Source of the DNA: an uncultured Bdellovibrionales bacterium
Lineage (GTDB): Bacteria > Patescibacteriota > Minisyncoccia > Moranbacterales > UBA1568
Direction: 5' to 3'
NCBI GenBank assembly: GCA_964579335.1
Contig: CAZOFS010000001.1
Coordinates: 11,196-75,195 of the forward strand
Length of the DNA: 64,000 bases
The notes beneath the pieces were generated by a model, which saw only the letters and a program-made list of their open reading frames with translations, made no database searches and was not told where the DNA came from. This document shows positions 15,269-45,640 of this stretch, piece after piece. Numbering within the stretch: the first letter of the stretch is position 1; every line of letters begins with the position of its first letter. Both the position numbers and the translations under genes were made by a program.

Positions 15269-15270
15269 CT

Positions 15271-17349: not shown

Positions 17350-17358
17350 TGTTATAAT
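17350..17358 (+). promoter_or_regulatory. Extended -10 promoter element TGtTATAAT for the flippase gene
   Basis: Perfect TATAAT at 17353-17358 preceded by TG at 17350-17351, about 70 nt upstream of the ATG at 17430, in a 213-bp AT-rich divergent intergenic region. Confidence 0.4.
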
Positions 17359-17429
17359 AGATTAATAGATGTCCATAAAAACGCTTGCCCCCATCTCTCT
17401 AAGAAAGTGCACCAGGATAAGATCTGTTT

Positions 17430-18686: not shown

Positions 18687-18769
18687 GTTGAAAAGTAGCA
18701 TATAAAGCCATCTCCTTAGGTATTCTTTTCCAAGATTTTCTTGATTGCTAAGAGTGTTTGTAGTCAAAA

Positions 18770-19978: not shown

Positions 19979-19984
19979 AAGGGG

Positions 19985-20659: not shown

Positions 20660-20710
20660 AGATTTTTCGTAAAAAATTACAAGTGACGCAGTCAGGAAAT
20701 AAATGAAGAA

Positions 20711-21505: not shown

Positions 21506-21508
21506 ATT

Positions 21509-22243: not shown

Positions 22244-22271
22244 GGCTACATTGGGCTTTTTTCTGGATCAG

Positions 22272-22296
22272 GTATACTATAAAAGTATACTATACC
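22272..22296. promoter_or_regulatory. Tandem GTATACTATA direct repeat in a divergent promoter region
   Basis: GTATACTATAaaaGTATACTATAcc. Each copy contains the palindrome GTATAC and a TATACT/TATAGT -10-like hexamer on either strand. It lies between a minus-strand methyltransferase operon and a plus-strand GT2 gene. Confidence 0.4.
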
Positions 22297-22383
22297 TTCT
22301 CTGAATCAAGGAGTATGAAAGGTTAATTGACAGGAGGGGTAGCTTATGTCTTTCTAAGAAAAAGAACGTACGTTTTACAGTCT

Positions 22384-23319: not shown

Positions 23320-24103
23320 GTTTCCTCTTAATGTTCTTAATGAAGTTGGGAGTCAGGATGACGATGAGCGGCTCAATCAGGTAGCGATAGTATAGCCAAC
23401 TATATCCATATCTGCGGATGTACTTGGTTTGGGTTTTGGCACATTGCCACATTTGCGCCCGTTGTTTTTCAATAGAAATTCCCTTCTCGATAGAACGGTA
23501 GCAGAGAAATTCAGGAAGATTGTAGAACTTCGTTTTTGGTGAGAGCCGAAGCCAGAGATCATAATCCTGGCCATAGCGGACAGATTCGTCATATTTCCCA
23601 ACTTCCTTGACGAGATAAGTCTTGAAGACGACACAGCTATGGGCAAAGGGATTTCTTTTGATAATGCTTTCTTTGATTTCTTCGTCACTCACCTTGAGGC
23701 TCACCGGGAATTCCTGGTTATGGGCAAGGTTAATGTAGTTGCAGCCGATCAGTCCGTACTCTCCGTGAGTCTCGAGAAAATTGAGTTGCTGTTCAAGCTT
23801 CTCAGGATGCCACCAATCGTCAGCATCAATGCGCGCAGTATAGGTTCCGGAGGCTTTATCGAGGCCCTTATTGAGGGATTTGGTCAGTCCAAGGCCAGGA
23901 GTATTTTCTATGAGGTGAAATCTTTCCTGGAAGATTGACTGCCATTTTTGGATGGCAGTGGCAGTAGTATCGGTGGAACCATCATTGATACAGACAATTT
24001 CAAAGTCCTGGAATGTCTGTTTTTGTATGCTCTCAAAACACTGGTCAAGCGTCGATGCCCCGTTGTGGATGGAAATAAGAATGGTGACTTTGGGTGAGTT
24101 CAT
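23303..24103 (-). CDS. Glycosyltransferase family 2
   Basis: VTILISIHNGASTLDQCFESIQKQTFQDFEIVCINDGSTD and ARIDADDWWHPEKL (DxD / catalytic-base region). Confidence 0.75.
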   Translation of the reverse strand: MNSPKVTILISIHNGASTLDQCFESIQKQTFQDFEIVCINDGSTDTTATAIQKWQSIFQERFHLIENTPGLGLTKSLNKGLDKASGTYTARIDADDWWHPEKLEQQLNFLETHGEYGLIGCNYINLAHNQEFPVSLKVSDEEIKESIIKRNPFAHSCVVFKTYLVKEVGKYDESVRYGQDYDLWLRLSPKTKFYNLPEFLCYRSIEKGISIEKQRAQMWQCAKTQTKYIRRYGYSWLYYRYLIEPLIVILTPNFIKNIKRKLIPSS

Positions 24104-25200
24104 GATCGTGTAAATCCAGTCAGTAGTTTATTCCAGTCATTGGCAATTTTTCTCAGAGAAAAATGTTCTTCCATGAATTTTTTGGCGGCCTGGCCAATGC
24201 GGGAACGAAGTGCTTCATCGGCCAAGAGTTTCTCGAGTGCGTCTGCGATGGCATCGCTATTTTTTACTGGGACAAGCATTCCGGTCGCTTTATCTTTTAC
24301 TAATTCTCGGTTTTCTTCGATGTCAGTCGTAATAACTGGCAGTCCGGCAGCCATCGCTTCCATGAGGGCGTTGCTCATGCCTTCAAAAAAAGTGGGCAAA
24401 ACAAAGATATGGGAAAGCTGCAGAATTTTGGGGACATCAGTTCTCTTGCCAAGAAAAAAAATATGTTCTCGAGAAACATACGAATCGATTTGCTTCTTCA
24501 GATTTGCTTTTTCTTCCCCATCGCCAATAAGGAAGAGCTTCGCACGGGGATGTCTTTGATGCACGTTTTCGAAAGCTTCCAAGAGGTAAGCATGTCCTTT
24601 ATTGGTATGCAGATTTGCTACGCAGACGATGACGGTTTCTCCCGGGGCGATGCCGAGAGACTCCTTGAGGGAGAGGTTGGCGAGAGCGGGGGTGGTATCA
24701 ATGCCATTTGGTAAAACTTGGATAGTATCCCTGACTATTCCTAAATGTTTTGCGTAGAAGCGTTTTACGGCCTCGGAGTTGGCGATGTATTGCTTCACGA
24801 GTGGCCGGGTAAGCCTCATGAGGAGGCGGGCGATAAAGTAGCGGGGATGGTTGTAGGTGGTGCGAAGGAAGGGGATGGGTGGGGCAGGAAGGATACCCCA
24901 AAGAATAAAACGAGTAACCATATCAGCATGGAAGAGATAGCTCAGGACAAGGTCGGGCTGCTCTTCTTTTACAAAGGTGCGAAGGCGGAGAAGTCCTGAA
25001 AAGTCAAAGAGGCCTCGGCAATGCACCGTCGCTACCCGGATATTGGCGGAAGCAAACCGGGGGGCGAGCTCCCCGAGTTCTTTGAGGGTGATAACGGTAT
25101 GCTCAAACTCGTCGAGGAGAGGAAGGGTACGAAGAAGCATATTCTCACAGCCGCCGTTATCGAGCGATTGGATAATGTGAAAAACCTTCTTTTTCCCCAT
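24100..25200 (-). CDS. Glycosyltransferase family 4
   Basis: FEGMSNALMEAMAAGLPVITTDIEENRELVKDKATGMLV. Start placed at MGKKKVFHII (25200). The ORF is open to 25224, which would overlap the upstream gene by 22 nt. Confidence 0.75.
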   Translation of the reverse strand: MGKKKVFHIIQSLDNGGCENMLLRTLPLLDEFEHTVITLKELGELAPRFASANIRVATVHCRGLFDFSGLLRLRTFVKEEQPDLVLSYLFHADMVTRFILWGILPAPPIPFLRTTYNHPRYFIARLLMRLTRPLVKQYIANSEAVKRFYAKHLGIVRDTIQVLPNGIDTTPALANLSLKESLGIAPGETVIVCVANLHTNKGHAYLLEAFENVHQRHPRAKLFLIGDGEEKANLKKQIDSYVSREHIFFLGKRTDVPKILQLSHIFVLPTFFEGMSNALMEAMAAGLPVITTDIEENRELVKDKATGMLVPVKNSDAIADALEKLLADEALRSRIGQAAKKFMEEHFSLRKIANDWNKLLTGFTRS

Positions 25201-25202
25201 TG

Positions 25203-26294
25203 TCATACCCGTGTGCCAATACACGTTATCCCTGCTTCAGGGTGCTCGTAGGCTTCAATTGCTTGCAAATGCGCATCAGTAAACCATTCTCGAATTTCTT
25301 CTACGTAGTAGTAGTTACTTTTGGGTGTGGCCAAAACATCAAAGGCATCATTGAGCTTCATGTTGAAGGGAAAATGGCGATAGTAAGCAAAGGGAAGCTT
25401 CTCTTCAAGTTTGGGAAACCCAATTTCACCGAGCCACTTTCCGAAGAGATTAATGCCATGGACGACTCCCCCGGGGATATAGCACAGCTTGAAAAGAAGG
25501 GGTTTTGGAAGTTTCTTGAGGAGGGAGCGCAGTGGTTCGTAGAAATAGAGCGCCCGGGCATTGTTGCGGCGGTTATACACCCAAATAAGCATCTTTCCGC
25601 CTATTTTGAGGACACTAGGAAGTTTACTGAAGCCCTGCTTGGGTTGGGGCAAATGATGAAGCACGCCAATAGAGTAAGCAATGTCAAAAATCTGATGGAA
25701 GGGCATGGCATAAATATCAGCCTGGACAATGCAGACATTAGGCAAATCTTTAGTCAGGCCATAGGCAACCTCAACCGTTTCTCCGAGATCGGTCCCAAAA
25801 GAAACTTCGGTTCCCGAAAGAGCTGCCCATTTGGTAAATCGCCCTGAACCACAGCCGATATCGAGGGTAGTTTTTCCTTTTAAATCCTGCTCTCTGAGAA
25901 AAGGGGAAAGAAAATGGAAAAAGTTATTTTTTTCATAATCGTTTTCTTTGTAGATATATTTCCATTCATAAGCGAAACTCTCAGCTGTTTTTTTCTGGTG
26001 CCTGAGGAATGCATCGAGGTCGGGAATATTATCGATGGCCCGCTGCCACTCGTTATGGGCGTTTTCAGGCAATTGATCTTTGTGTTGGTGAAAAAAGTCC
26101 TGGTGAGCTTGAAGGAGGTTTTCTTTGAGTTCACCGATGAGAATACGAGGAATCCCATTAATAATGGGGTACCAGCTTTGAGTAGTAGTGAGGAGGCCAG
26201 AAATCACATGCTCCCCCTCTTTTTGATAGGAGTGGAGTTCGAAGAGTTCATGGAAAAGAGGATCAGAAAGATGGGGAAGGAATTTTTCACGCAT
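25203..26294 (-). CDS. Trm112-like small domain fused to a class I SAM-dependent methyltransferase
   Basis: N-terminus SWYPIINGIPRIL (Trm112p-like zinc-ribbon-like motif). C-terminus TLDIGCGSGRFTKWAALSGTEVSFGTDL and GGKMLIWVYN. Confidence 0.6.
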   Translation of the reverse strand: MREKFLPHLSDPLFHELFELHSYQKEGEHVISGLLTTTQSWYPIINGIPRILIGELKENLLQAHQDFFHQHKDQLPENAHNEWQRAIDNIPDLDAFLRHQKKTAESFAYEWKYIYKENDYEKNNFFHFLSPFLREQDLKGKTTLDIGCGSGRFTKWAALSGTEVSFGTDLGETVEVAYGLTKDLPNVCIVQADIYAMPFHQIFDIAYSIGVLHHLPQPKQGFSKLPSVLKIGGKMLIWVYNRRNNARALYFYEPLRSLLKKLPKPLLFKLCYIPGGVVHGINLFGKWLGEIGFPKLEEKLPFAYYRHFPFNMKLNDAFDVLATPKSNYYYVEEIREWFTDAHLQAIEAYEHPEAGITCIGTRV

Positions 26295-26358
26295 AGAGGG
26301 TTTACAGTATTTATCCGTTAATTATAGACGATTTAGTACTTTCTTCAAGCAGGGAAAA

Positions 26359-27039
26359 TTAGGGCTTTTGGCAAATAATCGTGTAGTGAGGATACACCAA
26401 CATGCGCTTTTTAGTGAGGGAAGATGTTATAAAACCTATCTTCTTAAGTTCCTGCTCTGCTGTTTCGGCTACCATCTCATTGCCTATTTCTCCCGCGCAT
26501 ACAAAGTCATGAAGTTTGTTGAAACTTGTGAGAATGGGTTGTCCGGCATCAATGTCTTTTAGGACAAGTTTTGTACCAGGAGCCATTTTGTTGTAGATCT
26601 CCTGGAGAAAGGTAACCTGATCTTGTTTAGGGACGTGATGGAGTACATCAATGAGGAAGATATAGTTATACAAGCTGACTGTTTCAGGAATATCTTTCCC
26701 ATTGAAAGTGGTGAGGGTAGTAGAGATAGAGGTATTTTCTTGAAGCACTCTCTTGGCATTACTAATCAACGTGTCTGAAATTTCAATTCCTCCGAGGAGA
26801 TGGGGGTATTTGAATTTTGAGACTAAAGAAAGAAACATGCCATTACCACAACCGATATCGAAAACAGCAGCTTTCTCTGGGAGAATGTCGAGAAGATCAC
26901 CAAGAGGGCAGATATAAGGACGGTAAGCAATCTTAAGTTTATCAAGCAATTTTGCATCCTTTGGATCTCTTGATTGAAGGAACTGGGAAAGTTCACGGTT
27001 AGAAAATTTTTTCATAGTATTTGGTGAGGCCTGAAACAT
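26359..27039 (-). CDS. Class I SAM-dependent methyltransferase
   Basis: AAVFDIGCGNGMFLSLVSK, GGIEIS, and IFLIDVLHHVPKQD...GTKLVLKD. The annotated start overlaps the upstream gene by 41 nt; an alternative start is MKKF at 27015. Confidence 0.7.
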   Translation of the reverse strand: MFQASPNTMKKFSNRELSQFLQSRDPKDAKLLDKLKIAYRPYICPLGDLLDILPEKAAVFDIGCGNGMFLSLVSKFKYPHLLGGIEISDTLISNAKRVLQENTSISTTLTTFNGKDIPETVSLYNYIFLIDVLHHVPKQDQVTFLQEIYNKMAPGTKLVLKDIDAGQPILTSFNKLHDFVCAGEIGNEMVAETAEQELKKIGFITSSLTKKRMLVYPHYTIICQKP

Positions 27040-29209
27040 TTTTTTGAAACCAAGGACGGAGGAAGCTTAAGGTAGCTAGCTGATAGAGAAGAAGTTGGAT
27101 GTTTATTCCCAAGAGCAGGGTAATAAAGAAATCATAAATGGCAAGCATAGCTATGCCATTATGTTGTCCAAAAAATGAATTTTCAATAATAAGTGGAAGA
27201 AAAGAGAAGATAAACATAAAAAAAGGAAGGGAAAATTTCCAGGAACGTCTTTGAATAATAAAGAAAAGATTAATGAAAGAAAGGATGGTTACGGTAAACC
27301 ATAGCAGGGATCGAATAAAGGAAGTGTTAATAATATGACGATAGATGTTATTTGAAAGGAGTGATATAAGATCGAAGTAATTACCCTGGAAAGATTTTGT
27401 GATCCCGGTAAGGAACTTTATTGCGGAATGTTCGTGGTAGGTAATACTTTGACCCAAAGCAGTTTTAATTTCAGGGAGGAGGTTCACAAATCCGCTGGTG
27501 GGCATAATAATAAACGTCCCGGCTACGGTGAAATTGCGAAAACCAATAAAAATAGGAAAGAGTATGAACCCTATTACAAAAAAGAGGATGGTATATCTCC
27601 TTATAAATGCAAAGGGTGGTTCAAAAAACTTTACTCCTAAGAAGATGAAAACTCCTAAAAGGAGAGGGATCCAATCGGTTCGCATCATGCAGATAACTCC
27701 CCATAGAAGCCCTAGGAGAAAATAGTGAACCCAGGATGGGGTATTATTTTTGAGAAGGAAAAACATGTGCGCAAATGCGAGTACAACAAGAGGAAAAGCA
27801 ATAGCTTGTTGATATGGAGTGTGAAACAAAGCAAAAGGAGAAGTGGTAGGAAAAACCATGAGGAAAAAATAGCTCGCACCAAAGGTGAGTGCAACAGCTT
27901 TACCAAATTGTATGGCGAGAACAAAGACAAGAAAAAGAAAGGCTAAAGAAAATAGAAGGGTTTGGGCTACATATGGTCCCCACATTGGTTCGTCGAATAC
28001 CTTGTGAAAGGCAGCAAGAAAGAATCGGTGAAGTGGCTGATAGTAGTACGGCCCGTTCTTTTCGGTAGCTCGCAACATATCTTGGAAATTAGTGACTGAA
28101 AAAGTAGAGCGAGCAAATGACTCGTGGCCAAGCTCATCGCTGCCACCTTTAAAGAAAATGGTCTCTTTGGGTTGGGCATGTGCAGTAGCTAGGATAGATG
28201 CATTGCAAAAGAGTATGAGGAGGAGAAATGCAAGGATATTTCGTTTTGAATTCATTAGGTGAAGTATCCAGTAAAAAGAAGTGATGATAAAGATGCATGA
28301 GAAAAGAGAAAGTGAGAGCTTGAAGCTGAGGAAGTCTTGCTGGACGAGCCAAAAAAATCCAATAAGACTAAAGATAGTACTTAAAAGGAAATATTTCTCC
28401 TTCTTTTCTAATGCTTTTGTTTTCAGCAATAAACCCCAGAGAAAACAACCTAGTAAGAAAGTGAGCAGAAAAACGTTAATGAACTTGTAAATCTCTGTAA
28501 AGAGAATAACTACTGTCCCGGTTGGGAGAGTGTATAAGGGTGTTCCTGACACAGCAATTCGTAGGACACTTTTCTTTTTAATGGTGGCTTCATATTTTAT
28601 AGAGATCTGATTAAATTCATTGGGAACAAGATTGAAGGCCTCCCGCTTTTTCCCAGTTGTTTCAAGAGTTTTTCCGTTGATTGAAACCAATACTTTTTTG
28701 TCAGCGTGAACAATAATTTGATCGCCTGGCTTCGAGTAGAGAAAGGTGCTTGCCTCAAGGATATAGGGAAGAGTATCTCGTTTGGGTTGGTTCTCTTCGT
28801 AAAAGTTGAATGAAATATTATTAAAAAAATACAAAGGCATGTTCTTGCTATCAAAATCAACTTTTTCGTAAGTGTAGCCATTAATACCAGCTGGATCTTC
28901 AGCTGTAGGCTCGCAGCGAGACTGAAGTTTATTGATACCCACATCGCTCTTTATACATACTGACCACCCGTAGGGGAGGAAGTAATAAGATGTTATCTGT
29001 ATAACAAGGAGGAGAGTGAGAGAGGTTATTATTATTTTTTTGAGCCGAGGGGAGGTTTCCCAAGTGGTGGCTAAAATGAGCCAAAAACCAATGAAAGATC
29101 CAACCATCTCTTCGGCCGAAAGAGGTAATCCATCGAAAAACCCGGCTTTACTCCCCGGGAGGATACATATCAGAGTAAAAAGAATTGTGGCAAGGATTTT
29201 GAATCGCAT
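26999..29209 (-). CDS. Large membrane protein: N-terminal signal/anchor, about 230-aa extracytoplasmic domain, then about 12 TM helices (putative GT-C glycosyltransferase or polymerase)
   Basis: 736 aa. Signal-like N-terminus MRFKILATILFTLICILPGSKA. Long hydrophobic C-terminal two-thirds with short loops. Confidence 0.45.
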   Translation of the reverse strand: MRFKILATILFTLICILPGSKAGFFDGLPLSAEEMVGSFIGFWLILATTWETSPRLKKIIITSLTLLLVIQITSYYFLPYGWSVCIKSDVGINKLQSRCEPTAEDPAGINGYTYEKVDFDSKNMPLYFFNNISFNFYEENQPKRDTLPYILEASTFLYSKPGDQIIVHADKKVLVSINGKTLETTGKKREAFNLVPNEFNQISIKYEATIKKKSVLRIAVSGTPLYTLPTGTVVILFTEIYKFINVFLLTFLLGCFLWGLLLKTKALEKKEKYFLLSTIFSLIGFFWLVQQDFLSFKLSLSLFSCIFIITSFYWILHLMNSKRNILAFLLLILFCNASILATAHAQPKETIFFKGGSDELGHESFARSTFSVTNFQDMLRATEKNGPYYYQPLHRFFLAAFHKVFDEPMWGPYVAQTLLFSLAFLFLVFVLAIQFGKAVALTFGASYFFLMVFPTTSPFALFHTPYQQAIAFPLVVLAFAHMFFLLKNNTPSWVHYFLLGLLWGVICMMRTDWIPLLLGVFIFLGVKFFEPPFAFIRRYTILFFVIGFILFPIFIGFRNFTVAGTFIIMPTSGFVNLLPEIKTALGQSITYHEHSAIKFLTGITKSFQGNYFDLISLLSNNIYRHIINTSFIRSLLWFTVTILSFINLFFIIQRRSWKFSLPFFMFIFSFLPLIIENSFFGQHNGIAMLAIYDFFITLLLGINIQLLLYQLATLSFLRPWFQKNVSGLTKYYEKIF

Positions 29210-29213
29210 AGGC

Positions 29214-29870
29214 TTAGCCTATCTTATTTTGAAATTTCTTATATTTGGTAAGGAGATGGTAAATCAAAGAAGAAGATTTTTCTTGAAAATTTTTTCTGTC
29301 GAGGCTTTGGAGAAAGTTAGTGGCTGAAGTAAAATCAATATCACTCATGAGTGTTTTTCCATATTCACCAGCAAAGTGGGCATCGCTGGCGCATATAGGT
29401 GTTTTCCCATAGCGCTCAATGAACTGAGAAGCTTTTCGGTTATCAGACTGGAAGATATTGCGTGCATTAAAAACCTCAATAGCATCGATGAGATGGAGGT
29501 TTTTTTTCAGCTCAGCTGTTGTAAGTACGTGTTTCCGGAGCCGGTCAAAAGGATGGGGGACTATGGTAATGCCGCCTTGGCGCTTGATGGCCTCAAGGGT
29601 GGCTTGGGGAGTGAGTCCGGCTGGTATTTTTTCCTGAATAAATAAGCCGATAACTTCTCCAGCGGAAGTATTAATTTCTTCACCAACAATTACCGTCAGC
29701 CCAGAAGGGGCCATACTCCTGAGTCGGAGGGCGCCAGCTATTTCGTTGTGGTCAGTGATGGCAATGCCTGAAACTTGCTGAGTAATGCAACGCTGTATAA
29801 CATTCTCCAAACTTGCTCCTGCATCTTTGGAATACGGAGCAGTGTGGCAGTGGAATTCAAAATATGACAT
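29214..29870 (-). CDS. PHP-domain metal-dependent phosphoesterase
   Basis: PHP motifs FHCHT (HxH), ITDHN, IVPHPF and ASDAHF. 6 nt downstream of the UbiA-family gene. Confidence 0.7.
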   Translation of the reverse strand: MSYFEFHCHTAPYSKDAGASLENVIQRCITQQVSGIAITDHNEIAGALRLRSMAPSGLTVIVGEEINTSAGEVIGLFIQEKIPAGLTPQATLEAIKRQGGITIVPHPFDRLRKHVLTTAELKKNLHLIDAIEVFNARNIFQSDNRKASQFIERYGKTPICASDAHFAGEYGKTLMSDIDFTSATNFLQSLDRKNFQEKSSSLIYHLLTKYKKFQNKIG

Positions 29871-29876
29871 AGGTGT

Positions 29877-30755
29877 TTATAAATGAAAATGTATAATAGA
29901 AAAAAAGACCATTCCCCAAAGTGCAATATTGACAATCATAGGTCGATCGCTTGAGAAAATTTTGGTAGGATCATCACCTTTTGATTGGACATAAATAATT
30001 TGAAAATAGCGAAAGATGCCAAATACAACAAACGGTACAGTATAGAGTAGATGATGAGTTCCAAAGCGTTCCATGGTGTGATTGTCAATGGTATAAAGCG
30101 CATAGGTAATGATAGTGATTGCTGCTGTAGTACCAAGCAATTGGTTTAGAAATTCTGGATGGTATGAAGAAAGTACATTTCTTATCTGAGATGAATTTTC
30201 CTTAAGGATACCGATCTCACCTTTGCGTTTTCCAAAAGCGATGAAGAGAGCCCCAAAGAAAGTACAAAGGAGTATCCAGGGAGAAACGGAGACGGTAATA
30301 GCTGCAGCACCAGCTAAGATTCTTAGAACAAAACCGATAGCTACTACCATGACATCAAGAATAGGAATTCTCTTTAGATGCCATGAGTAAAGAATATTGA
30401 GAAGGAAATAGCCAGTAGTAATAGCGAAAACAGTAGGGGGTAATAATACAAGGATGATAGTAGTACCAGTAAGGAAAAGAGAGAGAAAGAAAACTAACCC
30501 TTGTTTTACACTGATAACCCTTGAGGCTATGGGGCGATATCGCTTGTGAAGATGTTTTCTATCAGATTCAACATCGGCAATATCATTGAATATATAAATT
30601 GCACTTGCTATTAATGAGAAGGCTGTAAAGGTGATAGTGACCTGTAAAATGTTATTTTGACTAAATTGAAGTGAGAAAACTAGGGGTGCAAAAATAAGTA
30701 CATTCTTAATGAGATGACTAATTCGCATGAGATGAAAATAAGCTTCCCATTTCAT
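29877..30755 (-). CDS. UbiA-superfamily polyprenyl-phosphate phosphoribosyltransferase-like protein (decaprenyl-phosphate 5-phosphoribosyltransferase family)
   Basis: NDIADVESDRKHLHKRYRPIASRVIS closely matches the DPPR-synthase signature NDVRDVEADRKHPTKRFRPIAAG. About 8 TM helices. Confidence 0.75.
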   Translation of the reverse strand: MKWEAYFHLMRISHLIKNVLIFAPLVFSLQFSQNNILQVTITFTAFSLIASAIYIFNDIADVESDRKHLHKRYRPIASRVISVKQGLVFFLSLFLTGTTIILVLLPPTVFAITTGYFLLNILYSWHLKRIPILDVMVVAIGFVLRILAGAAAITVSVSPWILLCTFFGALFIAFGKRKGEIGILKENSSQIRNVLSSYHPEFLNQLLGTTAAITIITYALYTIDNHTMERFGTHHLLYTVPFVVFGIFRYFQIIYVQSKGDDPTKIFSSDRPMIVNIALWGMVFFSIIHFHL

Positions 30756-31156
30756 AATATTTTTGGCTGGGTATCTGGTTTATAAAAAACCCAGTATTTA
30801 CTAGAAAAATAAGTAAAAAGAATAGCAAAAATAAGCGCGATGGTTTTCGAGATGTTGTAGTGAATTCCAAAGTTTATTGTGGCGAGATGAATAATAAATT
30901 CGGTAATGCCCAGAGCTATAAAGGTAACAAAAAGGTAATGGGAAATTTTTGAAAACTCTCGACCAGAAGTATTGTAACGAAAAGTCCATCTGCTATGAAG
31001 GATATAGCCTACTATCACACTTGTCGTAAATCCTAAAAGAACAGACCAGAAAAGGGTAAAATGAAGACCTAAATAGAGAATATTTAAAACAAAATAATCT
31101 ACTGAAATACTGAAAATTCCGACCAGGCTATAGCGTACCAATTGATACTCTATCAT
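30752..31156 (-). CDS. GtrA-family small membrane protein (lipid-linked sugar translocation accessory)
   Basis: 134 aa, 4 TM helices. VRYSLVGIFSISVDYFVLNILY...HSRWTFRY matches the GtrA-like family. 4-nt overlap with the UbiA-family gene. Confidence 0.7.
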   Translation of the reverse strand: MIEYQLVRYSLVGIFSISVDYFVLNILYLGLHFTLFWSVLLGFTTSVIVGYILHSRWTFRYNTSGREFSKISHYLFVTFIALGITEFIIHLATINFGIHYNISKTIALIFAILFTYFSSKYWVFYKPDTQPKIL

Positions 31157-31171
31157 ACGGGAGAAATTCGA

Positions 31172-32674
31172 TTATTGAGAGGTAACCGAAGCTATAACGT
31201 ATAATTCTCCAAATTTTATGGAGGAACTTTCGATTTTCAACCCTGCTTTTTCAAGTTCGGAGCGGAAATTTTCTTCAGTGTATTCTATAAAGTGAGTATC
31301 ATCGAGTTTGTAGCTAAAACCCTGATTCTTTTTGTAAACACTAAGCCAGTCACGAGTTATCATAGGAACTCGAATAAGAAATTTTGGAGCTAATCTCTTG
31401 ATGTTTTTTAAGAATTCTTTTCGTTTTTTTATGTGTTCTAGAACATTTGAAAGGACAATTATATCGAAAGTTTCCGTAAATTGATAATTCGTGGCATCAC
31501 CCTCAATAAATCGCATGTTATCAAGGCAGTATTCTTTTTTTGCAAGAACAATGTTTTTATTTATGATATCAATCCCGGTTACTTTTCGAGCTTTTTGGGC
31601 AATATGGTGGGCAACAAATCCGCTTCCATATCCGATATCAAGAACGGAATCACTTGGATGAACGTTTTCTACAAAAAATTTATGGTAGTCTGATATTTTA
31701 TGCTTTGGATGAATTCCACCATTATCTTTTATGGCAAGGAAACTAATAACCTTGTAAGAAAAATTATTGAGCCAGCAGAAAAAATGCATTACACCCCGAT
31801 TGATTGTTTTTAAAGGAAACTTTTCCCATAGAGTTTTATTTTTTTTCTTTTCTGATGATCCAACTTTTTTGAATACAAGCAAGATGGAGTGACTACTGAA
31901 AGGAGCTACGAGAAAAGAAATTCCATAGTTGAGAATTTTCACTAATAGGTTTTGACTGTCGTAAATTTTTTGTAACCAAGGTTTGAGAATAGAGGCTTCA
32001 TCTTTAAGTCCTTTCATTCCGGCATAGTGAGTTTTGCACACCAATCTAAATCCGTCATTAGTAAGTTCTTTGATGAGTTGATTGTGATCTAGAGCAAATT
32101 GGTAGAATTTGTCTTTCTGATCAATATGAGGATTAAAGAGGGGGTAACAGCCAAGCTTTATCTTCAACCTTCGTAAGAGTGAAAGATGAGGAAAGGTAAG
32201 AAAAAGATAACCCCCATCCTTCAGTACGCGTTTCATCTCATGGAGGATGGGCTGATAACCATCAAAAAAATGCTCAATAACTCCAATTGACCAATACCCA
32301 TCAAAATAAGCATCCGGGAATTCGAGGCTTCTTACATCTCCAGCACGAACATCAAGATAGGGAAAGGAAGCCTTTATTTTGTCGATGGTTTTTGGAGCAT
32401 AATCTACACCGTATGCATCGTAGCCGAGTTCATGAAAGGCATAAACAAACTGTCCATTACCACAGCCCCCCTCGATGATCTTTTTTGTTTTTTCTGGGGG
32501 GATAAATTTTTGGGTAGTTTTGGTTATCAGCCGATTATTAAGGCCATTCTTAACTACCTCTTCAAAATTGGTTACATCCCATTGGTTATCCCAATAGCTT
32601 GGAGAAGCTTCTTGTTCTATGAATACGATTCTATTTCCTTGGGGATCAAAATATTTTTTCATACAGTTCAGCAA
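31172..32674 (-). CDS. Tandem double SAM-dependent methyltransferase (two class I MT domains in one polypeptide)
   Basis: Domain 1 IIEGGCGNGQFVYAFHELGYDAYGVDYAPK is a paralog of 20711-21505. Domain 2 is VLDIGYGSGFVAHHIAQKARKVTGIDI...IIVLSNVLEHI. Confidence 0.7.
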   Translation of the reverse strand: MLNCMKKYFDPQGNRIVFIEQEASPSYWDNQWDVTNFEEVVKNGLNNRLITKTTQKFIPPEKTKKIIEGGCGNGQFVYAFHELGYDAYGVDYAPKTIDKIKASFPYLDVRAGDVRSLEFPDAYFDGYWSIGVIEHFFDGYQPILHEMKRVLKDGGYLFLTFPHLSLLRRLKIKLGCYPLFNPHIDQKDKFYQFALDHNQLIKELTNDGFRLVCKTHYAGMKGLKDEASILKPWLQKIYDSQNLLVKILNYGISFLVAPFSSHSILLVFKKVGSSEKKKNKTLWEKFPLKTINRGVMHFFCWLNNFSYKVISFLAIKDNGGIHPKHKISDYHKFFVENVHPSDSVLDIGYGSGFVAHHIAQKARKVTGIDIINKNIVLAKKEYCLDNMRFIEGDATNYQFTETFDIIVLSNVLEHIKKRKEFLKNIKRLAPKFLIRVPMITRDWLSVYKKNQGFSYKLDDTHFIEYTEENFRSELEKAGLKIESSSIKFGELYVIASVTSQ

Positions 32675-32686
32675 TCTGGTAAGCAG

Positions 32687-33682
32687 CTAAAAAATCTCGA
32701 TGTACTTCTGGGTCATAATGTCGAGTGAGAAGTTCTTTTCGGCAATAGCCCTGCTTTTTTCTGAGTAGGACACAAGGTTTTGTAAGATGGAATTGAGGTT
32801 ATCAGCAAACTGGTCGGTATTGTATGCCCGGCGTTTCCAAAAGGCATCCCCATCAGCGGGTATAAGGAGACTATTTTCTCCCGGGATAGTTAGTTCATTC
32901 ATAGATCCATCATTGACCCCACATATAGGCAAGCCGCAAGCCATGGCCTCAATGATGTTGTTGGGGCAAGGTGGGTTGAGATGAGTCATGAGAAAAACGT
33001 CGGCTGACCTTTGGTATTTTGGGAGATCCTCGTTTTTGATCTTACCAAGGAAATGAAGTTCCGTAAATTGAGAAAATTCCTGTGGCACAGTGGCCACTTC
33101 CCGGGTAAAATCACCGATGATAAGGAATTTAAAATTGTCGGTATATTTCTTTTTGTAAATTCTGAGAGCTTCAATGAGTGGGAGAATCTGGTCAGTGCGG
33201 CGAAATTTGGAAACAGTGATGAATAGTTTCTGTTCCGGATCGTCTCGCAGATTTTCAATCTTCTCTCCTCTTGGAGTAAAACGGTTGATATCTACTCCAT
33301 TGTAAATGATCGAGTAATTCTCATCTTTTCCTTTACCGAGAAACGTATCAGCGCAGTGCTTGCTGTATTTACTCTGGTATACAGTAAAATCAGCGAAAAA
33401 ACGATGAATGAAACTGGGTGGGAAATTGAGAAGGGGATATTTCCAACCAGCTACTGACCAGTAGTAGACTCCATCAAGGCGTTGAATAATTTTCTTTTTA
33501 TGGAATTTGGCATGCAGGAGGTAAAAGGGATTGCACTGTACCATTACAAACAGTACATCATAATCTTTGCGGAATGTGTAAAAAACTTCATGACCTGCTT
33601 TCTCAAGAGCTTGGCCGAACTTTTTTGCAAAAGTAGAAGTGCCTCCGGTATCTTGGATAGCGAAAGGAAGGAATATTTTCAT
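32687..33682 (-). CDS. Glycosyltransferase (GT-B, GT4-like)
   Basis: N-terminus KIFLPFAIQDTGGTSTFAKKFGQALEKAGHEV. C-terminus CPNNIIEAMACGLPICGVNDGSMNELT. Confidence 0.65.
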   Translation of the reverse strand: MKIFLPFAIQDTGGTSTFAKKFGQALEKAGHEVFYTFRKDYDVLFVMVQCNPFYLLHAKFHKKKIIQRLDGVYYWSVAGWKYPLLNFPPSFIHRFFADFTVYQSKYSKHCADTFLGKGKDENYSIIYNGVDINRFTPRGEKIENLRDDPEQKLFITVSKFRRTDQILPLIEALRIYKKKYTDNFKFLIIGDFTREVATVPQEFSQFTELHFLGKIKNEDLPKYQRSADVFLMTHLNPPCPNNIIEAMACGLPICGVNDGSMNELTIPGENSLLIPADGDAFWKRRAYNTDQFADNLNSILQNLVSYSEKSRAIAEKNFSLDIMTQKYIEIF

Positions 33683-34839
33683 AGAGTTTTGGATAAAGAA
33701 GATATTTTTTCAAGATACATGTTGATAGAATGATCCCAATTAAATTTCTGTTCTATTTCCTGACGAGCATTTTCTCCTAGTTCTTGTCGACGCAACTCGT
33801 TATCGAGAAGCTCTTCGAGGGATTTTTTGATAGCTTCTGTATCATGTGGTGGAATGATAATTCCTGATTGATTATGCGTAAGGATTTCTGGCGTCCCCCC
33901 AACATTGGTAGCGATCATAGCCCGACGACACGCTCCTGCTTCTAGGACTGATGTAGGGAGTCCTTCGTTGTAGCTTGGATTTATAAAGACATCAGTTACC
34001 TTGAGGAGGCTGATAACTTTACTAAAAGGTATATTTCCAAGAAATTTCGTTTGATTTGAAAGGCTATTTTCTCGGACGTATTGTTCAAGATGGATTCTTT
34101 CTGGGCCATCACCGACAATAACAAGCAGAATATCGGAACGCCTCAAAAAAGCTACCGCTTCCAAGAGATGTTTCACCCCTTTTCCATAGATAAGTCGTCC
34201 TACATAGGTAATGATCTTCTTTTCTCCCGCTTCACTTTGCAGGTTTTGATCGGGAAGAATAGCATCAATTTCGGCAAATGGCATACCTCGGTAAATCACA
34301 GTCGATTTTTTTCTTGAGAGTTTCTCTACGAATCGGGCAGCGGATCTGGAAGGGGTGATAATGAGATCGGCTCGGGAGAGCGTGAAGCGGCCGATGGTCA
34401 TGTCCACCAGTCGTGAGATGAGGGAAATAAGAAGGGTATTCTTGACGTAATCGCTGCAGTGTTCGATGTGAAGATAGGGGGTGCGGTGTCGTTTAGCGAA
34501 GTAGAGAGCGAAGAGAGGTTGGATAAAAAACCGAAGCGTGGAAATAGTAAGGTCGAATTCTTCTTGATTGATCTGCTTCCATTGGCGCCAAAAATCTTTG
34601 TTCCAAATTTTTGGCAAAGGATAATTGAAGATAATGTCAAAAGCGGGGTAGCGGAGAATACGGATATTCCCTTGAGTCTCTTCTTGAGGCGCAGAAAGAG
34701 GAAGACGGGGAGTGAAGATAGTAATATGATGGCCACGTTTAGCAAAATTTTCATGGAGTTCCTCGGAGTATTTCTCCATACCTCCGATATGAGGGGGGTA
34801 GTAAGGAGCGAAGTCGATAATTTTCATAAGACTTTCCAA
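33679..34839 (-). CDS. Glycosyltransferase family 4
   Basis: MKIIDFAPYYPPHIGGMEKYSEEL and NEGLPTSVLEAGACRRAMIATNVGGTPEIL. 4-nt overlap with the downstream gene. Confidence 0.75.
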   Translation of the reverse strand: MESLMKIIDFAPYYPPHIGGMEKYSEELHENFAKRGHHITIFTPRLPLSAPQEETQGNIRILRYPAFDIIFNYPLPKIWNKDFWRQWKQINQEEFDLTISTLRFFIQPLFALYFAKRHRTPYLHIEHCSDYVKNTLLISLISRLVDMTIGRFTLSRADLIITPSRSAARFVEKLSRKKSTVIYRGMPFAEIDAILPDQNLQSEAGEKKIITYVGRLIYGKGVKHLLEAVAFLRRSDILLVIVGDGPERIHLEQYVRENSLSNQTKFLGNIPFSKVISLLKVTDVFINPSYNEGLPTSVLEAGACRRAMIATNVGGTPEILTHNQSGIIIPPHDTEAIKKSLEELLDNELRRQELGENARQEIEQKFNWDHSINMYLEKISSLSKTL

Positions 34840-36881
34840 ATAATCACTTCGTCAAATTCATTCTCGATATGATATACTCGCTCAAATTTTTGAGGAAATT
34901 GGTCGAAAAGAAATTTTCCTTCTGGACAAGGCTCAATACCCCAAGACTTCATGCTATATGGACGATCACGGTAAGGATTTTTGGTGTGGACTTGCGAGTA
35001 GTAAACATAGAGGGATTTTTCTTTGAAAGAAGAAAGAGGGGTAAGGGTATAAATGTATTTATTGGAAATTGGCGCGCTAAGAGTGGGAATAGTTGAGAGA
35101 GGGGAAATGGTAAAAATTAGTTTGCTTGCCTCTAGTGTATTGACTGTTTTCTCAAATGATTGGTAGCTGGTTTCACAGTAAACTTGATTGGGAATATTTA
35201 CTACCGTACTTTTTGCATATACAGGAAGTAGTCCACGGTAACCATAAGATAAGAAGAGTCGGTTTTCGGGGAGAGTAGTCTGGATCCATTCAGCGCTCTG
35301 GAGTTGAAGGGGGGAAATGAGATAACGCTTCAAATAGTTGATGTAGAGAGTCCCACTTATGGTGATCACAAAGCACATCGTAAACAAAATAATTGCTTTA
35401 GAAGAGATTTTTGAAAAATACTGAAGGAGAATAAAGAGAAAAAAGTATCCAAAAATACCTGCGAACACCCAAGCGCGATCAGGGAGGAGAGCTAAACCAG
35501 GAAAACGAGGAAATACTTCAGCAATAACAAAAAAAGTAAGAAAGGAAAGAAAAATGATAGAGAGCGCTGGACTCCCGAAGAGTCTTTTTGAAGCAAAAGA
35601 ACGGAATTTTTTGTGGAACAAAAGAATGAGAAAAGCGAGAAGGATTAGCCCGAGCACTGGCCCGACATAGTAAGCATAAAATTTGATAATACCGCTCCAG
35701 GAGGTCCAGCCCATCAGATTGCGGTCAATGTTGGAGTATTGTGCGGGATAAAACCAGTTAAAGTGGGCTTTTTCTAAAAAAGAAGGAGCAAGCTTATAAA
35801 TCCAGTGTATGCCAAATTCATAGAGTGGTTTGAGGAACTGGATAGTGGAAATCACGATGAGAATAAGGAAGAGAGAGATTTTTTTGTTGCCATAGATAGC
35901 CTTTCGCTTAGCAATGATGACGGGCAGTACCCAAGCTGGAATCATGAGTAATGCTGTTTGATGGTAGAAAAAAGCCAAAAGTATGGTTAATCCAGAGATA
36001 TATAAGAAAAAGTCATCTTGCTTAAGATGAGAATAAATCAAGAAAAAGGTAATAAAATAACAGAGCACGATAAACGGCGCTTGCGGCATAGCAGTACCGG
36101 CATACAGGATGACATTAGGAATGCTAAATAGAAAAAGGAGGAAGATCCACTGACTGCTTTTGTTTGGAAATGTTTTGGCAATGAGCCAACCAGGAATAAG
36201 GGCCGTGAGAAGCAAAAAAGGAAGAAAGTATTTAAAGAACTCGGCTATAGTAATGCCAGTAAGAGTGGTTGCAGCAAAAATGAGCGAGCCAAAAAATGGC
36301 CGTTCAGCATAGTCAAGAAGATGGTTCTCAAACTGATAGGTGTATTTATACAGCCACTTGTAAGGGTCTAGGTCTGGAAGCGGGGAAAAAGAAAAAACTT
36401 GGAGTAGGAGGAAGATAATTCCAAAAACAAAAGAGAGGAAAAGAGGATGGAAATGGAAGTTGAGAACGGTGTGACAGGGTACGAAAGAAGGAAGGGTAGT
36501 TTTTTTGAAAAAGAGAAGGAGACTTGCTGGTATCAGAAGAAGAAAAATATTGATAATAGGATGCCAAACAGCAATGCTTTTGAGGAGGAAAAATTCTAGA
36601 TTCAAGATAAGAGGAGGGATAAGAAAGCTCATTAAGAAAGAAAGAGAAAGAAATTCCCAAGTACCGAAGGTCTTTTTAAAGAGCCATTGGAGAATGAGGG
36701 TGACGCAAGCCCCGGTGCCAAACAGAAAAAAGAGGCTGCCGCCAAGTAGTTGGGATAAGAAAAGGATGGGATGATCCCATGTCTGTCGAAGAAGAAGAAC
36801 ACTAATATATCCCCCAAGAATGAGGAAAAGGTAGAAAAAAGAGCCTTGAGATAAAAGGAGACGATTCAAAGAGGTGGCCAT
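34824..36881 (-). CDS. Large polytopic membrane protein with a C-terminal extracytoplasmic domain (putative GT-C glycosyltransferase / polymerase)
   Basis: 685 aa with at least 14 hydrophobic helices, then a soluble C-terminal domain of about 170 aa. No soluble enzymatic motif recognised. Confidence 0.45.
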   Translation of the reverse strand: MATSLNRLLLSQGSFFYLFLILGGYISVLLLRQTWDHPILFLSQLLGGSLFFLFGTGACVTLILQWLFKKTFGTWEFLSLSFLMSFLIPPLILNLEFFLLKSIAVWHPIINIFLLLIPASLLLFFKKTTLPSFVPCHTVLNFHFHPLFLSFVFGIIFLLLQVFSFSPLPDLDPYKWLYKYTYQFENHLLDYAERPFFGSLIFAATTLTGITIAEFFKYFLPFLLLTALIPGWLIAKTFPNKSSQWIFLLFLFSIPNVILYAGTAMPQAPFIVLCYFITFFLIYSHLKQDDFFLYISGLTILLAFFYHQTALLMIPAWVLPVIIAKRKAIYGNKKISLFLILIVISTIQFLKPLYEFGIHWIYKLAPSFLEKAHFNWFYPAQYSNIDRNLMGWTSWSGIIKFYAYYVGPVLGLILLAFLILLFHKKFRSFASKRLFGSPALSIIFLSFLTFFVIAEVFPRFPGLALLPDRAWVFAGIFGYFFLFILLQYFSKISSKAIILFTMCFVITISGTLYINYLKRYLISPLQLQSAEWIQTTLPENRLFLSYGYRGLLPVYAKSTVVNIPNQVYCETSYQSFEKTVNTLEASKLIFTISPLSTIPTLSAPISNKYIYTLTPLSSFKEKSLYVYYSQVHTKNPYRDRPYSMKSWGIEPCPEGKFLFDQFPQKFERVYHIENEFDEVIIWKVL

Positions 36882-36968
36882 ATATCTTCCAAATTATAGC
36901 CTATTCCACCCTCTTGCGTAAAGAATTTTCCCTTAAAAAAGCCATTATCATTCGATTGAGTTGGAGAC

Positions 36969-38567
36969 TTATGGCAATTTTTTATAAATAGTAAACATGC
37001 CAAATTCTCTATCATAGACATAGCCTGAGGGGGCAGTATAGGGCGTGGTTGATGAGTACGGGAGAGAAAGCTCCTTCCCTGATTTTTTGGTTATGCTTTG
37101 TATGAGATGGAAGATTTTGTTGGGTTTTTTTTGTGGGATTTTGTCAGTGATAGTGATGATGATAAAGTCGGCCTCTGGGTGGTAGGAAACGACTCTTTTT
37201 CTCAGGTCAGGGGAGTTGAACATCTCAGCTATGATCAATTCTCGTGATGCCATGATGATTTTATCTTCAGGTATTTCAGTGAGGATGTATTTAATAAGAC
37301 TTGATTCAATATGATAATTATTTCGAGTACTAAAATATTCATTGAAAATAATAGCGAAAATACTGTTTATGAAAAAGAAACATCCGATGGAAGCTATAAA
37401 GAACCAAAAGAAAATTTTTTTAAAATACCAATTTTTACTTTGATAGAATGTTTGGAGGAGATGCCAACTACTAAATGCGAAGATGAGGTAAGTGAGGGGC
37501 CAGAGAATAATGGCAGAACGATAACCAAATTGGTTGAGGAGAGTGGCAATAATAAAGAAAGTTAATGAAGCAAAATAGAGAGAAAGTAACTTTATATTTT
37601 TTTTAAATACAAGAACAAGAAGAGTTATGACTAAGGGAAAAATGAAAAACCAATGCGGAAGAAGCCAACGAAAGTAGGTATGATTGAGAGTTTGTATTTT
37701 TTCAAGCACTATTGGGTGCAATAAGGAAAAGGAGCCTGTAGTGGGAGAGAGAATAGAGGAATCTAATTCAAGATTTGATCTCGCTTCTTGGGCTACATGT
37801 GTGAGGCTATAGACTTTCTGAGTCGGAGCATTATTGGGAAGAATATGATGAGCAGTTAAAGAAAATGAAAATACAAGAATAACGATGAGAGAGGCTTTTT
37901 TCCAGGCTGCTAGTGGGAAAGTCCAAGTAAAAAATGAATAAAATAATAGGTAGAATGGAAGTATAAGTATACTAAATACGCTCATGGGATGAAGAAAGGT
38001 ATAGAAAAAAGTTAAAATAAAGAGACTCCAATAACGAAATTGAATGTCATCTCTAAGTAAGAAAAGAGTAAGGAGAAAGAAAAAAATAACGAAAAAAAAG
38101 CTTGGTACAATCCAAAAGAAACCATGGGTTTCACCAAATCCATGATAAAAACTTAAGAAAAATATTGACCAGGAGATAAGATCTTTATTTTGAGAAAAGG
38201 ATTTAAGAAATGGAACGAATATAAGAGTAAGTAGGATGATACCAAAGTAAAAACTGAAATGGTATATTTCTTGAATTGAAACATGTAGAATTTTTCCTAA
38301 TATACCAAAAAAAATACGGTAGGTAAGATAGTTAAACCCGGAACTATTTTGAAGAGTTATGTTTGTAGATGAACATGATTTGGATGTGCATTCTGCTATT
38401 GAGGCGATTTGGGTGAGATAATTATACGAATCATCTGGTTCAGGAGGAATATGACGATCCTCCCAGAGAATGCCGATGAGGAAAAACTTCCAAATAATGA
38501 AAAAAAGAATGGCAGCAATGAACCATTTATTTTCTTGCATCTTTTGGTTGATCTCACTCAGTTTCAT
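36969..38567 (-). CDS. Large polytopic membrane protein with a C-terminal soluble domain (putative GT-C-like)
   Basis: About 530 aa. Start placed at MKLSEINQ (38567) to avoid a 76-nt overlap with the upstream gene; the ORF is open to 38639. Confidence 0.4.
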   Translation of the reverse strand: MKLSEINQKMQENKWFIAAILFFIIWKFFLIGILWEDRHIPPEPDDSYNYLTQIASIAECTSKSCSSTNITLQNSSGFNYLTYRIFFGILGKILHVSIQEIYHFSFYFGIILLTLIFVPFLKSFSQNKDLISWSIFFLSFYHGFGETHGFFWIVPSFFFVIFFFLLTLFLLRDDIQFRYWSLFILTFFYTFLHPMSVFSILILPFYLLFYSFFTWTFPLAAWKKASLIVILVFSFSLTAHHILPNNAPTQKVYSLTHVAQEARSNLELDSSILSPTTGSFSLLHPIVLEKIQTLNHTYFRWLLPHWFFIFPLVITLLVLVFKKNIKLLSLYFASLTFFIIATLLNQFGYRSAIILWPLTYLIFAFSSWHLLQTFYQSKNWYFKKIFFWFFIASIGCFFFINSIFAIIFNEYFSTRNNYHIESSLIKYILTEIPEDKIIMASRELIIAEMFNSPDLRKRVVSYHPEADFIIITITDKIPQKKPNKIFHLIQSITKKSGKELSLPYSSTTPYTAPSGYVYDREFGMFTIYKKLP

Positions 38568-45614: not shown

Positions 45615-45640
45615 AGATTGATAGCTCAATAATACCCATT

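Follow-up and report, generated by a model that had tools for sequence, protein, structure and literature searches.

A PHP-domain protein co-inherited with an Rv3806c-type phosphoribosyltransferase in a candidate lipid-linked ribose operon of an uncultured bacterium

We analysed a stretch of 64,000 nucleotides (the window) from an uncultured Bdellovibrionales bacterium (GTDB lineage Patescibacteriota; Minisyncoccia; Moranbacterales; UBA1568; assembly GCA_964579335.1, contig CAZOFS010000001.1, positions 11,196 to 75,195), in which the gene for a UbiA-superfamily membrane protein lies between genes for a GtrA-family protein and a PHP-domain protein. An earlier note, made from the sequence alone, had likened these three genes to the mycobacterial module for decaprenyl-phospho-ribose. 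The operon most likely makes a lipid-linked ribose donor from phosphoribosyl pyrophosphate (PRPP) and attaches the sugar outside the cell, as a variant of the extracytoplasmic pentofuranose pathway. A more specific reading, to which we give about even chances, is that the PHP protein is the founding member of a class of enzymes with a new function, PHP-fold phosphatases of polyprenyl-phospho-ribose-5-phosphate. Its partners in a module of four genes would be the synthase, a GT-C glycosyltransferase of a new family with a PA14 domain, and a methyltransferase, and together they would decorate the surface glycans of uncultured bacteria with pentofuranose, possibly O-methylated while still attached to the lipid.

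The three open reading frames (ORFs) are co-oriented on the minus strand, and the listing of ORFs in the window confirmed their coordinates (Table 1). Their junctions read as the earlier note had described them: the GtrA stop and the UbiA start share the 4-nt overlap ATGA, and 6 nt (ACACCT) separate the UbiA stop from the PHP start. A further 4-nt spacer leads from the PHP stop to the next gene, which encodes the GT-C protein. Junctions this tight are the packing expected of a single operon. Pfam assigned the three proteins to GtrA_DPMS_TM (PF04138, 70 bits, cutoff 26.1), UbiA (PF01040, 98.9 bits, cutoff 34.2), and PHP (PF02811, 43.4 bits, cutoff 26.4) with PHP_C (26.2 bits, cutoff 21.3), respectively.

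Judged by its sequence, the UbiA protein (292 amino acids, aa) belongs to the Rv3806c-type branch of polyprenyl-phosphate phosphoribosyltransferases and not to the quinone prenyltransferases. It passed both NCBIfam equivalog models for decaprenyl-phosphate phosphoribosyltransferases (DPPRS; NF008977, 276 bits with the cutoff at 234, and NF008978, 209.6 bits with the cutoff at 207), and its sole matches in the PDB were the Rv3806c entries 8j8j and 8j8k (expect value (E) 3.7e-33 over 262 residues). Of the models for quinone, haem or chlorophyll prenyltransferases, the highest-scoring gave 50.9 bits, the quinone and haem cutoffs being above 200. The motif that had been quoted as the signature of the family, NDIADVESDRKHLHKRYRPIASRVIS, is present as residues 57-82, and the conclusion drawn from it was right. 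The motif itself is largely the generic UbiA motif for Mg2+ and diphosphate, and the specific evidence lies in K17, Y54, N120 and F142.

To locate the PRPP contacts, we combined a pairwise alignment to the Rv3806c PDB entry with an alignment of 91 sequences. In Rv3806c, Mg2+ is held by N73 and D77, the ribose by N73 and Q135, the 5-phosphate by K28, Y70 and Y157, and the diphosphate by R22, K87, R90, K143, Y138 and K208 (PMC10994848). The Mg2+ and diphosphate ligands are kept in the window protein (N73 as N57, D77 as D61, R22 as R11, K87 as K71, R90 as R74, K143 as K128 and Y138 as Y123), and N57, D61, K71, R74, K128 and Y123 are invariant across 90 loci. Of the diphosphate ligands only K208 is lost (N193), and the adjoining R192 is invariant. 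Among the phosphoribose contacts, K28 and Y70 are identical (K17 and Y54), Q135 is replaced by N120 with the amide retained, and Y157 by F142; a Phe at the last position is also found in some mycobacteria (PMC10994848). Since the phosphoribose-binding sites, including K28 and Y70, are not conserved in true UbiA prenyltransferases (PMC10994848), the conservation of these two residues weighs most. Within the subclade of 11 loci closest to the window, 10 of the 11 mapped PRPP/Mg contacts are invariant, and R11, which lies outside the scored alignment, is nearly so.

Independent support for PRPP as the substrate comes from two related operons (L083:3287-4153 and L170:8165-9004), which carry a PRPP synthetase paralogue (Pribosyltran_N/Pribosyl_synth, 279-288 aa) between the methyltransferase and GT-C genes. 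This amounts to a dedicated supply of PRPP for the glycan pathway. We consider it very improbable that the UbiA protein is an ordinary aromatic prenyltransferase of the quinone, haem or chlorophyll type in a cluster unrelated to PRPP. The UbiA fold and the superfamily-general NDxxDxxxD motif are common to both kinds of enzyme, and the Joint Genome Institute (JGI) labels relatives as 4-hydroxybenzoate polyprenyltransferase, but the equivalents of K28 and Y70 and the operon PRPP synthetase of the two relatives speak against such a function, and the reading was rejected on the family scores.

Proteins matching the window UbiA protein at E < 1e-10 number more than 5,000 and come from many phyla. 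A scan of genome contigs found no relative above 46% identity, and at the 80 reference-genome loci examined (L002-L081, e.g. L006, L012, L016, L046, L048 and L063), where the UbiA proteins are 37-46% identical, the PRPP contacts are all kept. In a tally of the co-oriented neighbours at these distant loci (n=98), DUF362 proteins (20), methylmalonyl-CoA mutases (10), short-chain dehydrogenase/reductase (SDR) epimerases (6) and GHMP kinases (4) were the commonest, and none was a GtrA, PHP, PAP2 or DprE1 gene, although DprE1/E2, PAP2 or GtrA had been expected there. The gene contexts of these loci are unrelated, so passing an equivalog threshold says little about biological role, and it is the local gene context, not the family threshold, that argues for the proposed glycan role. 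One layout recurred among the Bacteroidota, Ignavibacteria and Chlorobi, in which an ORF of ~555 aa, UbiA, and ORFs of ~370 and ~300 aa follow each other.

Closer relatives gave a different picture. Gene-context look-ups of UbiA relatives at 47-67% identity, all of them metagenomic, fell into two operon layouts. Layout A, found in the window (L001) and in L171, L082, L083, L084 and L170, is (GtrA)-UbiA-PHP followed by a methyltransferase and a GT-C gene in either order or fused, with or without the PRPP synthetase. Layout B is UbiA, a member of LPG_synthase_TM (PF03706, the MprF flippase-domain family), an SDR epimerase and PHP; it was found in L086, L087, L168 and L169, and in L085 with a PHP-like segment that immediately precedes the called gene for a 652-aa membrane protein and shares its open reading frame. 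A co-oriented PHP gene within ~2.6 kb of UbiA was thus present at 11 of 11 subclade loci and in both layouts (10 of 10 with the PHP profile, plus L171), whereas the PHP profile found one near UbiA at 1 of the 80 more distant loci, and that match was weak. Fisher's test gives p 2.5e-13 for this difference, a value that overstates the evidence, as the loci are related to one another. A single-sequence phmmer scan of the 80 genome loci with the window PHP and GtrA proteins and three large membrane proteins gave almost no matches; the clade-restricted linkage emerged, despite this near-empty scan, from the context look-ups.

The linkage is also specific when viewed from the PHP side. Among 80 sampled metagenomic loci with PHP homologues at 35-44% identity (L088-L167) no UbiA gene was found, and the neighbours of these unlinked PHP genes are of a housekeeping kind (formyltransferase, elongation factor P (EF-P), PrsW and uracil-DNA glycosylase). 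In a neighbour-joining tree the linked PHP proteins form one clade in 252/300 bootstraps, with layout A recovered in 298/300 and layout B in 272/300, and the topology resembles that of the UbiA tree. Overall, these sequence comparisons suggest that the synthase recruited a single branch of a housekeeping PHP family and retained it through rearrangements of the operon, and that, within this clade, the PHP protein is a real and specific partner of the UbiA synthase. As side observations on the unlinked small PHP genes, a common layout is EF-P, PHP and a formyltransferase-domain protein, and myo-inositol-1-phosphate synthase makes up 6 of 99 neighbours; the wider small-PHP family may be sugar-phosphate monoesterases.

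The AlphaFold2 model of the PHP protein has a predicted local distance difference test score (pLDDT) of 97.2, and H7, H9, D16, D40/H41, E65, H106, D163 and H165, which are the expected set of PHP metal ligands, are invariant in an alignment of 37 PHP sequences. A single-sequence search of the PDB gave no matches with this protein, and its relatives emerged from profile and fold searches. The best Foldseek matches were PHP proteins of the TrpH type (RNase AM, 7ug9, E 4.2e-12, and TM0559, 2anu, E 5.7e-12), followed by BVU_3505, BAD_1165 and the nucleotide bisphosphate phosphatase Cv1693 (2yb1, E 4.1e-7). On the strength of this model the protein is a predicted TrpH/RNase AM-like metallophosphoesterase and not a CpsB-like one. 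With the TrpH/YciV-type proteins (RNase AM 7ug9/9etk, the Cv1693 3',5'-nucleotide bisphosphate phosphatase and TM0559), which are its best matches by both fold and profile and whose substrates carry phosphorylated ribose, it has the PHP barrel and the His/Asp/Glu ligands in common. It differs from them in being shorter (218 vs ~280-290 aa, at 16-24% identity) and in forming a distinct clade co-inherited with a membrane phosphoribosyltransferase.

The same searches bear on whether the PHP protein could be a tyrosine phosphatase of the CpsB/Wzh type that regulates a bacterial tyrosine kinase (BY-kinase) in capsule assembly, its place next to UbiA being incidental. CpsB/YwqE does have this fold and the locus is a polysaccharide cluster, but YwqE/CpsB (3qy6) ranked only 46th in the fold search (E 2.6e-3, template modelling score (TM) 0.43), far behind the TrpH-type proteins, and CpsB was not found in the PDB profile search with the PHP protein at E <= 1e-3. 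We scanned the domains of 57 ORFs across the 64 kb (every selected ORF of at least 90 aa, plus a 343-aa ORF at 38564..39595; a 161-aa ORF was without NCBIfam coverage), and they contain no BY-kinase, PAP2 or DprE1/DprE2-type (FAD_binding_4/ALO) domain. With the UbiA linkage conserved as well, we rejected this reading, which the earlier note had named as one that would overturn its interpretation, and leave it almost no probability.

The 5-phosphate of the synthase product must come off before the sugar is used. The UbiA protein consists of the UbiA domain alone with no fused HAD domain, and the HAD-UbiA fusion model NF006088 matched in its UbiA part only (profile 191-477) with 195 bits, below its cutoff of 351. 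The sole HAD-like ORF of the window lies 16 kb off in a sugar-nucleotide block. Because the synthase has no HAD, the window has no PAP2 and the PHP protein is the sole hydrolase of the conserved core, we place the PHP protein in the phosphatase slot, so that the role the earlier note gave it still fits; pathway logic and co-inheritance are what suggest it. The nearest PHP structures (RNase AM and Cv1693) are of enzymes whose substrates are phosphorylated ribose or nucleotides. The PHP protein has no predicted transmembrane segment or signal peptide, so it should be cytoplasmic, the same compartment in which the 5-phosphate intermediate is made.

Directly downstream of PHP, the 736-aa protein has a GT-C fold and a PA14-like domain. 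GT-C enzymes are expected to have a catalytic acid in the first extracytoplasmic loop; the candidates here are E34, which is invariant and follows the first helix, and the pair D358/E363 within a conserved GGxDELGHE loop. The 226-aa methyltransferase encoded next shares 54-60% identity with the C-terminal domain of fused GT-C-methyltransferases (P0249, P0250 and P0253), and a methyltransferase of 215-220 aa lies within the module in L083, L084, L170 and L171. In the window, the two genes overlap by 41 nt (26999..27039) in different frames, whereas the relatives with a fusion have a single ORF of 943-952 aa. The split is also found in an 89%-identical relative (P0248, 736 aa), and it is therefore probably real and not a sequencing frameshift. 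Further downstream, a methyltransferase of 363-365 aa and then a GT4 gene follow the module in the same order in L082 and L171.

Starting from the observed family and fold assignments, the conserved catalytic residues, and the gene order and its conservation, we infer the substrates and reactions as follows, and it is for the PHP substrate, the kind of pentose and the acceptor of the methyl group that this inference goes furthest. The UbiA enzyme would join PRPP and polyprenyl phosphate into polyprenyl-P-Ribf-5-P (Ribf, ribofuranose), and the cytoplasmic PHP metallophosphoesterase would take off the 5-phosphate to give polyprenyl-P-Ribf. Where present, the GtrA-family protein would assist the lipid-linked sugar to the outer face. 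The 736-aa GT-C protein would then transfer the pentofuranose onto the polysaccharide of the surrounding locus, its PA14-like domain binding the acceptor glycan, and the cytoplasmic S-adenosylmethionine (SAM)-dependent methyltransferase, which in relatives is a C-terminal fusion to the GT-C protein, would methylate the lipid-linked sugar or the glycan. Ribose is taken as the default sugar because the layout A core has no epimerase and the window no DprE1/E2, the latter in agreement with the earlier note.

Several observations weigh against this pathway. GtrA is missing from the flanks of L082, L083, L084 and L170, and thus present in 2 of the 6 layout A loci; in L171 an orthologue, 64% identical, holds the same position. 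The three genes do adjoin in the window, as claimed, but the conserved unit is UbiA-PHP with GT-C and methyltransferase and not a GtrA/UbiA/PHP triad. The model of the GT-C protein is of moderate confidence (pLDDT 75.9), and Foldseek alone gave no match with it at E <= 0.001. Monophyly of the PHP-linked UbiA proteins is weak (176/300 bootstraps with Kimura distances); it was recovered with BLOSUM62 and absent in one point estimate. The broader PHP family looks housekeeping-like and has no known lipid-linked substrate, and the closest solved relatives are nucleases and nucleotide phosphatases, not lipid phosphatases. Finally, Kelly et al. found that the phosphatase-dead D18A variant of ORF15, the HAD-fused synthase of Citrobacter, retained residual dephosphorylation, giving some dephosphorylated product both in vitro and in vivo (PMC11127046). 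Such background activity means that a dedicated phosphatase is maybe not strictly required and that the PHP protein could have another job.

These last points lend themselves to an alternative that we regard as unlikely, though worth keeping in mind: polyprenyl-P-pentofuranose is made as the donor, a housekeeping phosphatase carries out the 5-phosphate step and the PHP protein has another role in the pathway. It might act on a different glycan phosphoester, on a by-product, or on a phosphorylated sugar feeding PRPP synthesis. What argues against this alternative is the clade-specific co-inheritance with the phosphoribosyltransferase at all 11 loci, together with a core module that offers no other phosphatase candidate and a pathway with exactly one unassigned phosphoester step. 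We continue to favour the PHP protein as the 5-phosphatase.

The identity of the pentose meets a similar objection, as an epimerase for the lipid-linked sugar could be encoded outside the module, for example by one of the three SDR epimerase genes elsewhere in the window (5497..6408, 6418..7824 and 44676..45629). The transferred donor would then be an epimer (arabino- or xylofuranose), formed by such an enzyme or by a DprE1/E2 pair from another part of the genome, or else a pentofuranose that the module methyltransferase, which is fused to GT-C in relatives, has O-methylated on the lipid; the view here is of 64 kb of the genome. At the five layout B loci an SDR epimerase always lies close downstream of UbiA and, where PHP is called as a separate gene, upstream of PHP, and it resembles ORF13 of Citrobacter, an SDR epimerase that converts undecaprenyl-phospho-ribofuranose (und-P-Ribf) to und-P-Xylf (Xylf, xylofuranose; PMC11127046). 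By analogy, layout B looks like a counterpart of the Xylf-type system of Kelly et al., and with LPG_synthase_TM directly after UbiA at every one of these loci it suggests an MprF-type flippase for the lipid-linked pentose alongside an ORF13-like epimerase. However, the core module neither contains nor adjoins an epimerase or DprE1/E2 gene, whether in the window or at the five other layout A loci, and the SDR genes of the window sit in nucleotide-sugar-like blocks at least 15 kb away. An epimerised or methylated donor is a minority possibility in our estimation, and unmodified ribofuranose is the sugar we carry forward.

The module is part of a co-oriented run of genes from ~42.3 kb down to 23.3 kb (Table 1), set in a very large surface-polysaccharide region with an initiating Bac_transf enzyme, two Wzx-like flippases, many GT2 and GT4 glycosyltransferases, AsnB and at least eight SAM methyltransferases. 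The number of methyltransferases is unusually large and suggests a heavily methylated glycan. The flippase-like proteins (MatE/Polysacc_synt, 17430..18686 and 59418..60902) are far from the module. The neighbourhood of GT-C glycosyltransferases that had been claimed is borne out, with three proteins passing the Pfam PMT/PMT_2 threshold (3906..5393, 50509..52413 and 52425..54788) in addition to the GT-C adjacent to PHP.

Table 1. Positions in the window of the module genes and of the two genes downstream of them.
Feature	Position	Strand	Basis and candidate role
GtrA-family small membrane protein, 134 aa	30752..31156	-	PF04138; candidate flippase/escort for polyprenyl-phosphate sugar
Rv3806c-type polyprenyl-phosphate 5-phosphoribosyltransferase (predicted), UbiA superfamily, 292 aa	29877..30755	-	NCBIfam, PDB match, PRPP contacts
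Soluble stand-alone PHP-domain metallophosphoesterase, 218 aa	29214..29870	-	PF02811 + PF13263; candidate polyprenyl-P-ribose-5-phosphate 5-phosphatase
GT-C-fold membrane glycosyltransferase, 736 aa, PA14-like beta-sandwich at ~residues 82-221	26999..29209	-	Candidate transferase using lipid-linked pentofuranose
SAM-dependent methyltransferase, 226 aa	26359..27039	-	Methyltransf_23/31/12/25/11; functionally tied to GT-C
Methyltransferase, 363 aa	25203..26294	-	Pfam; downstream of module
GT4 glycosyltransferase	24100..25224	-	Pfam; after the 363-aa methyltransferase

Other features of the locus were noted in passing. Directly upstream of GtrA, a 500-aa protein (31172..32674, minus strand) has two tandem SAM-methyltransferase domains. 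Two large polytopic membrane proteins of 685 aa (34824..36881, minus) and 556 aa (36969..38639, minus) belong to the same gene run; neither protein matched a Pfam or NCBIfam model, and they may be additional GT-C enzymes or polymerases. A GT2 protein (237 aa) and a DUF2304 protein (128 aa) at 43507..44588 (minus) resemble a polyprenyl-phosphate hexose synthase with a small membrane partner, and such a pair directly adjoins the UbiA-PHP module in L170 and L083; loci with this pair probably draw on at least two lipid-linked monosaccharide donors. A 115-aa protein (2792..3139, plus), whose gene comes immediately after that of the Bac_transf initiating glycosyltransferase, belongs to the 'mycobacterial 4 TMS phage holin' family (PF04020, 100.8 bits). 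The G+C content is 35-41% over 14000..40000, the central part of the polysaccharide locus, and 45-54% in the flanks; low-GC islands of this sort are often seen in horizontally exchanged O-antigen and capsule loci.

As far as can be told, three things here are new: a PHP-fold protein in the phosphatase slot, for which the comparative evidence is strong; a small GT-C family that had gone unannotated, bears a PA14 domain and is obligately partnered with a methyltransferase; and a PRPP synthetase encoded in the operon of some members. The pathway type itself is known, and lipid-linked ribofuranose donors outside the Actinobacteria are already established, so the description of this chemistry as rarely documented outside that phylum is out of date given the Pseudomonas cluster (bioRxiv 10.1101/2020.04.19.049825) and the Citrobacter work (PMC11127046). 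In the literature that could be searched, we found neither a report of a PHP enzyme at the polyprenyl-P-ribose-5-phosphate step nor any precedent for a PHP enzyme on such a lipid-linked sugar-phosphate substrate, and to that extent the novelty claimed for the PHP fold stands. It needs the qualification that PHP would be the third unrelated fold at this step, after PAP2 (Rv3807c) and HAD (ORF15). If the PHP protein is the phosphatase, a glycan-decoration pathway recognised only recently would show non-orthologous displacement at one defined step, and lipid-linked sugar phosphates would join the substrates of PHP enzymes for the first time. UbiA-PHP also offers a new marker for loci without a fused HAD, whereas Kelly et al. 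probed for these systems with the HAD-fused ORF15 (PMC11127046), and the family of GT-C, PA14 and methyltransferase could serve glycoengineering of pentofuranose-bearing glycans. No new kind of envelope chemistry is opened and nothing is overturned; the relevance is to bacterial glycobiology and to PHP enzymes.

Among known systems, the closest comparison is with Citrobacter youngae O1/O2, in which Kelly et al. (2024) gave biochemical proof of und-P-Ribf synthesis and of transfer by the GT-C enzyme and described the system as widespread; its components are ORF15 (PPPRS-PRP), ORF14 (a MATE flippase) and ORF12 (GT-C/GT136) (PMC11127046). The logic of the two would be the same, with an Rv3806c-like enzyme loading ribose-5-P from PRPP, followed by dephosphorylation, flipping and GT-C transfer. 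Both systems lie in an O-antigen-like locus and both are without DprE1/E2 (the Ribf type), and the GT-C of Citrobacter comes with a carbohydrate-binding module where that of the window has a PA14-like domain. They differ in the phosphatase: the candidate in the window is a PHP-fold protein with a gene of its own, whereas ORF15 carries a HAD domain at the N-terminus of the synthase. They also differ in the candidate flippase, which is of the GtrA family and optional among relatives in the window and a MATE protein in Citrobacter. The GT-C proteins are set apart by description, that of the window being PMT_2-like with a PA14 insert and ORF12 being of the EpsG family according to the supplement of PMC11127046; the PMT_2-like core suggests a GT-C family other than GT136. 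Unlike the Citrobacter system, the window module has a SAM methyltransferase as an integral part, sometimes fused, and a PRPP synthetase in some relatives.

The mycobacterial decaprenyl-phospho-arabinose (DPA) pathway consists of Rv3806c, Rv3807c, which is of the PAP2 superfamily (PMC3229680), DprE1/DprE2, Rv3789 and the Emb/Aft GT-C enzymes. The window is without PAP2 and DprE1/DprE2, and FAD_binding_4/ALO domains are absent from its scanned ORFs and from the precomputed Pfam lists of 10 related loci; without DprE1/DprE2 no arabinose is predicted, unlike in the mycobacterial pathway. The small GtrA-family membrane protein matches a mycobacterial feature (Rv3789-like) at the level of the family, PF04138, and its sole PDB sequence match is the GtrA-like transmembrane domain of Pyrococcus furiosus Dol-P-Man synthase (5mlz, E 0.02). 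Whereas mycobacteria use decaprenyl, the lipid carrier of the window module is presumably undecaprenyl, and the product would decorate a polysaccharide where DPA builds the cell-wall arabinan. According to a preprint (bioRxiv 10.1101/2020.04.19.049825, citing Harvey et al. 2011), the P. aeruginosa PA7/Pa5196 cluster PsPA7_6245-6249 encodes a phosphatase, DPPRS, GtrA, DprE1 and DprE2. Like the window, this pilin D-arabinofuranose (D-Araf) cluster has contiguous genes for a phosphatase, a DPPR synthase and a GtrA-like protein, in a Gram-negative organism with a GT-C consumer (TfpW). As described there, it differs in having an Rv3807c homologue as its phosphatase, in the presence of DprE1/E2, which are essential and lead to D-Araf, and in its acceptor, which is pilin, as opposed to the polysaccharide proposed for the window.

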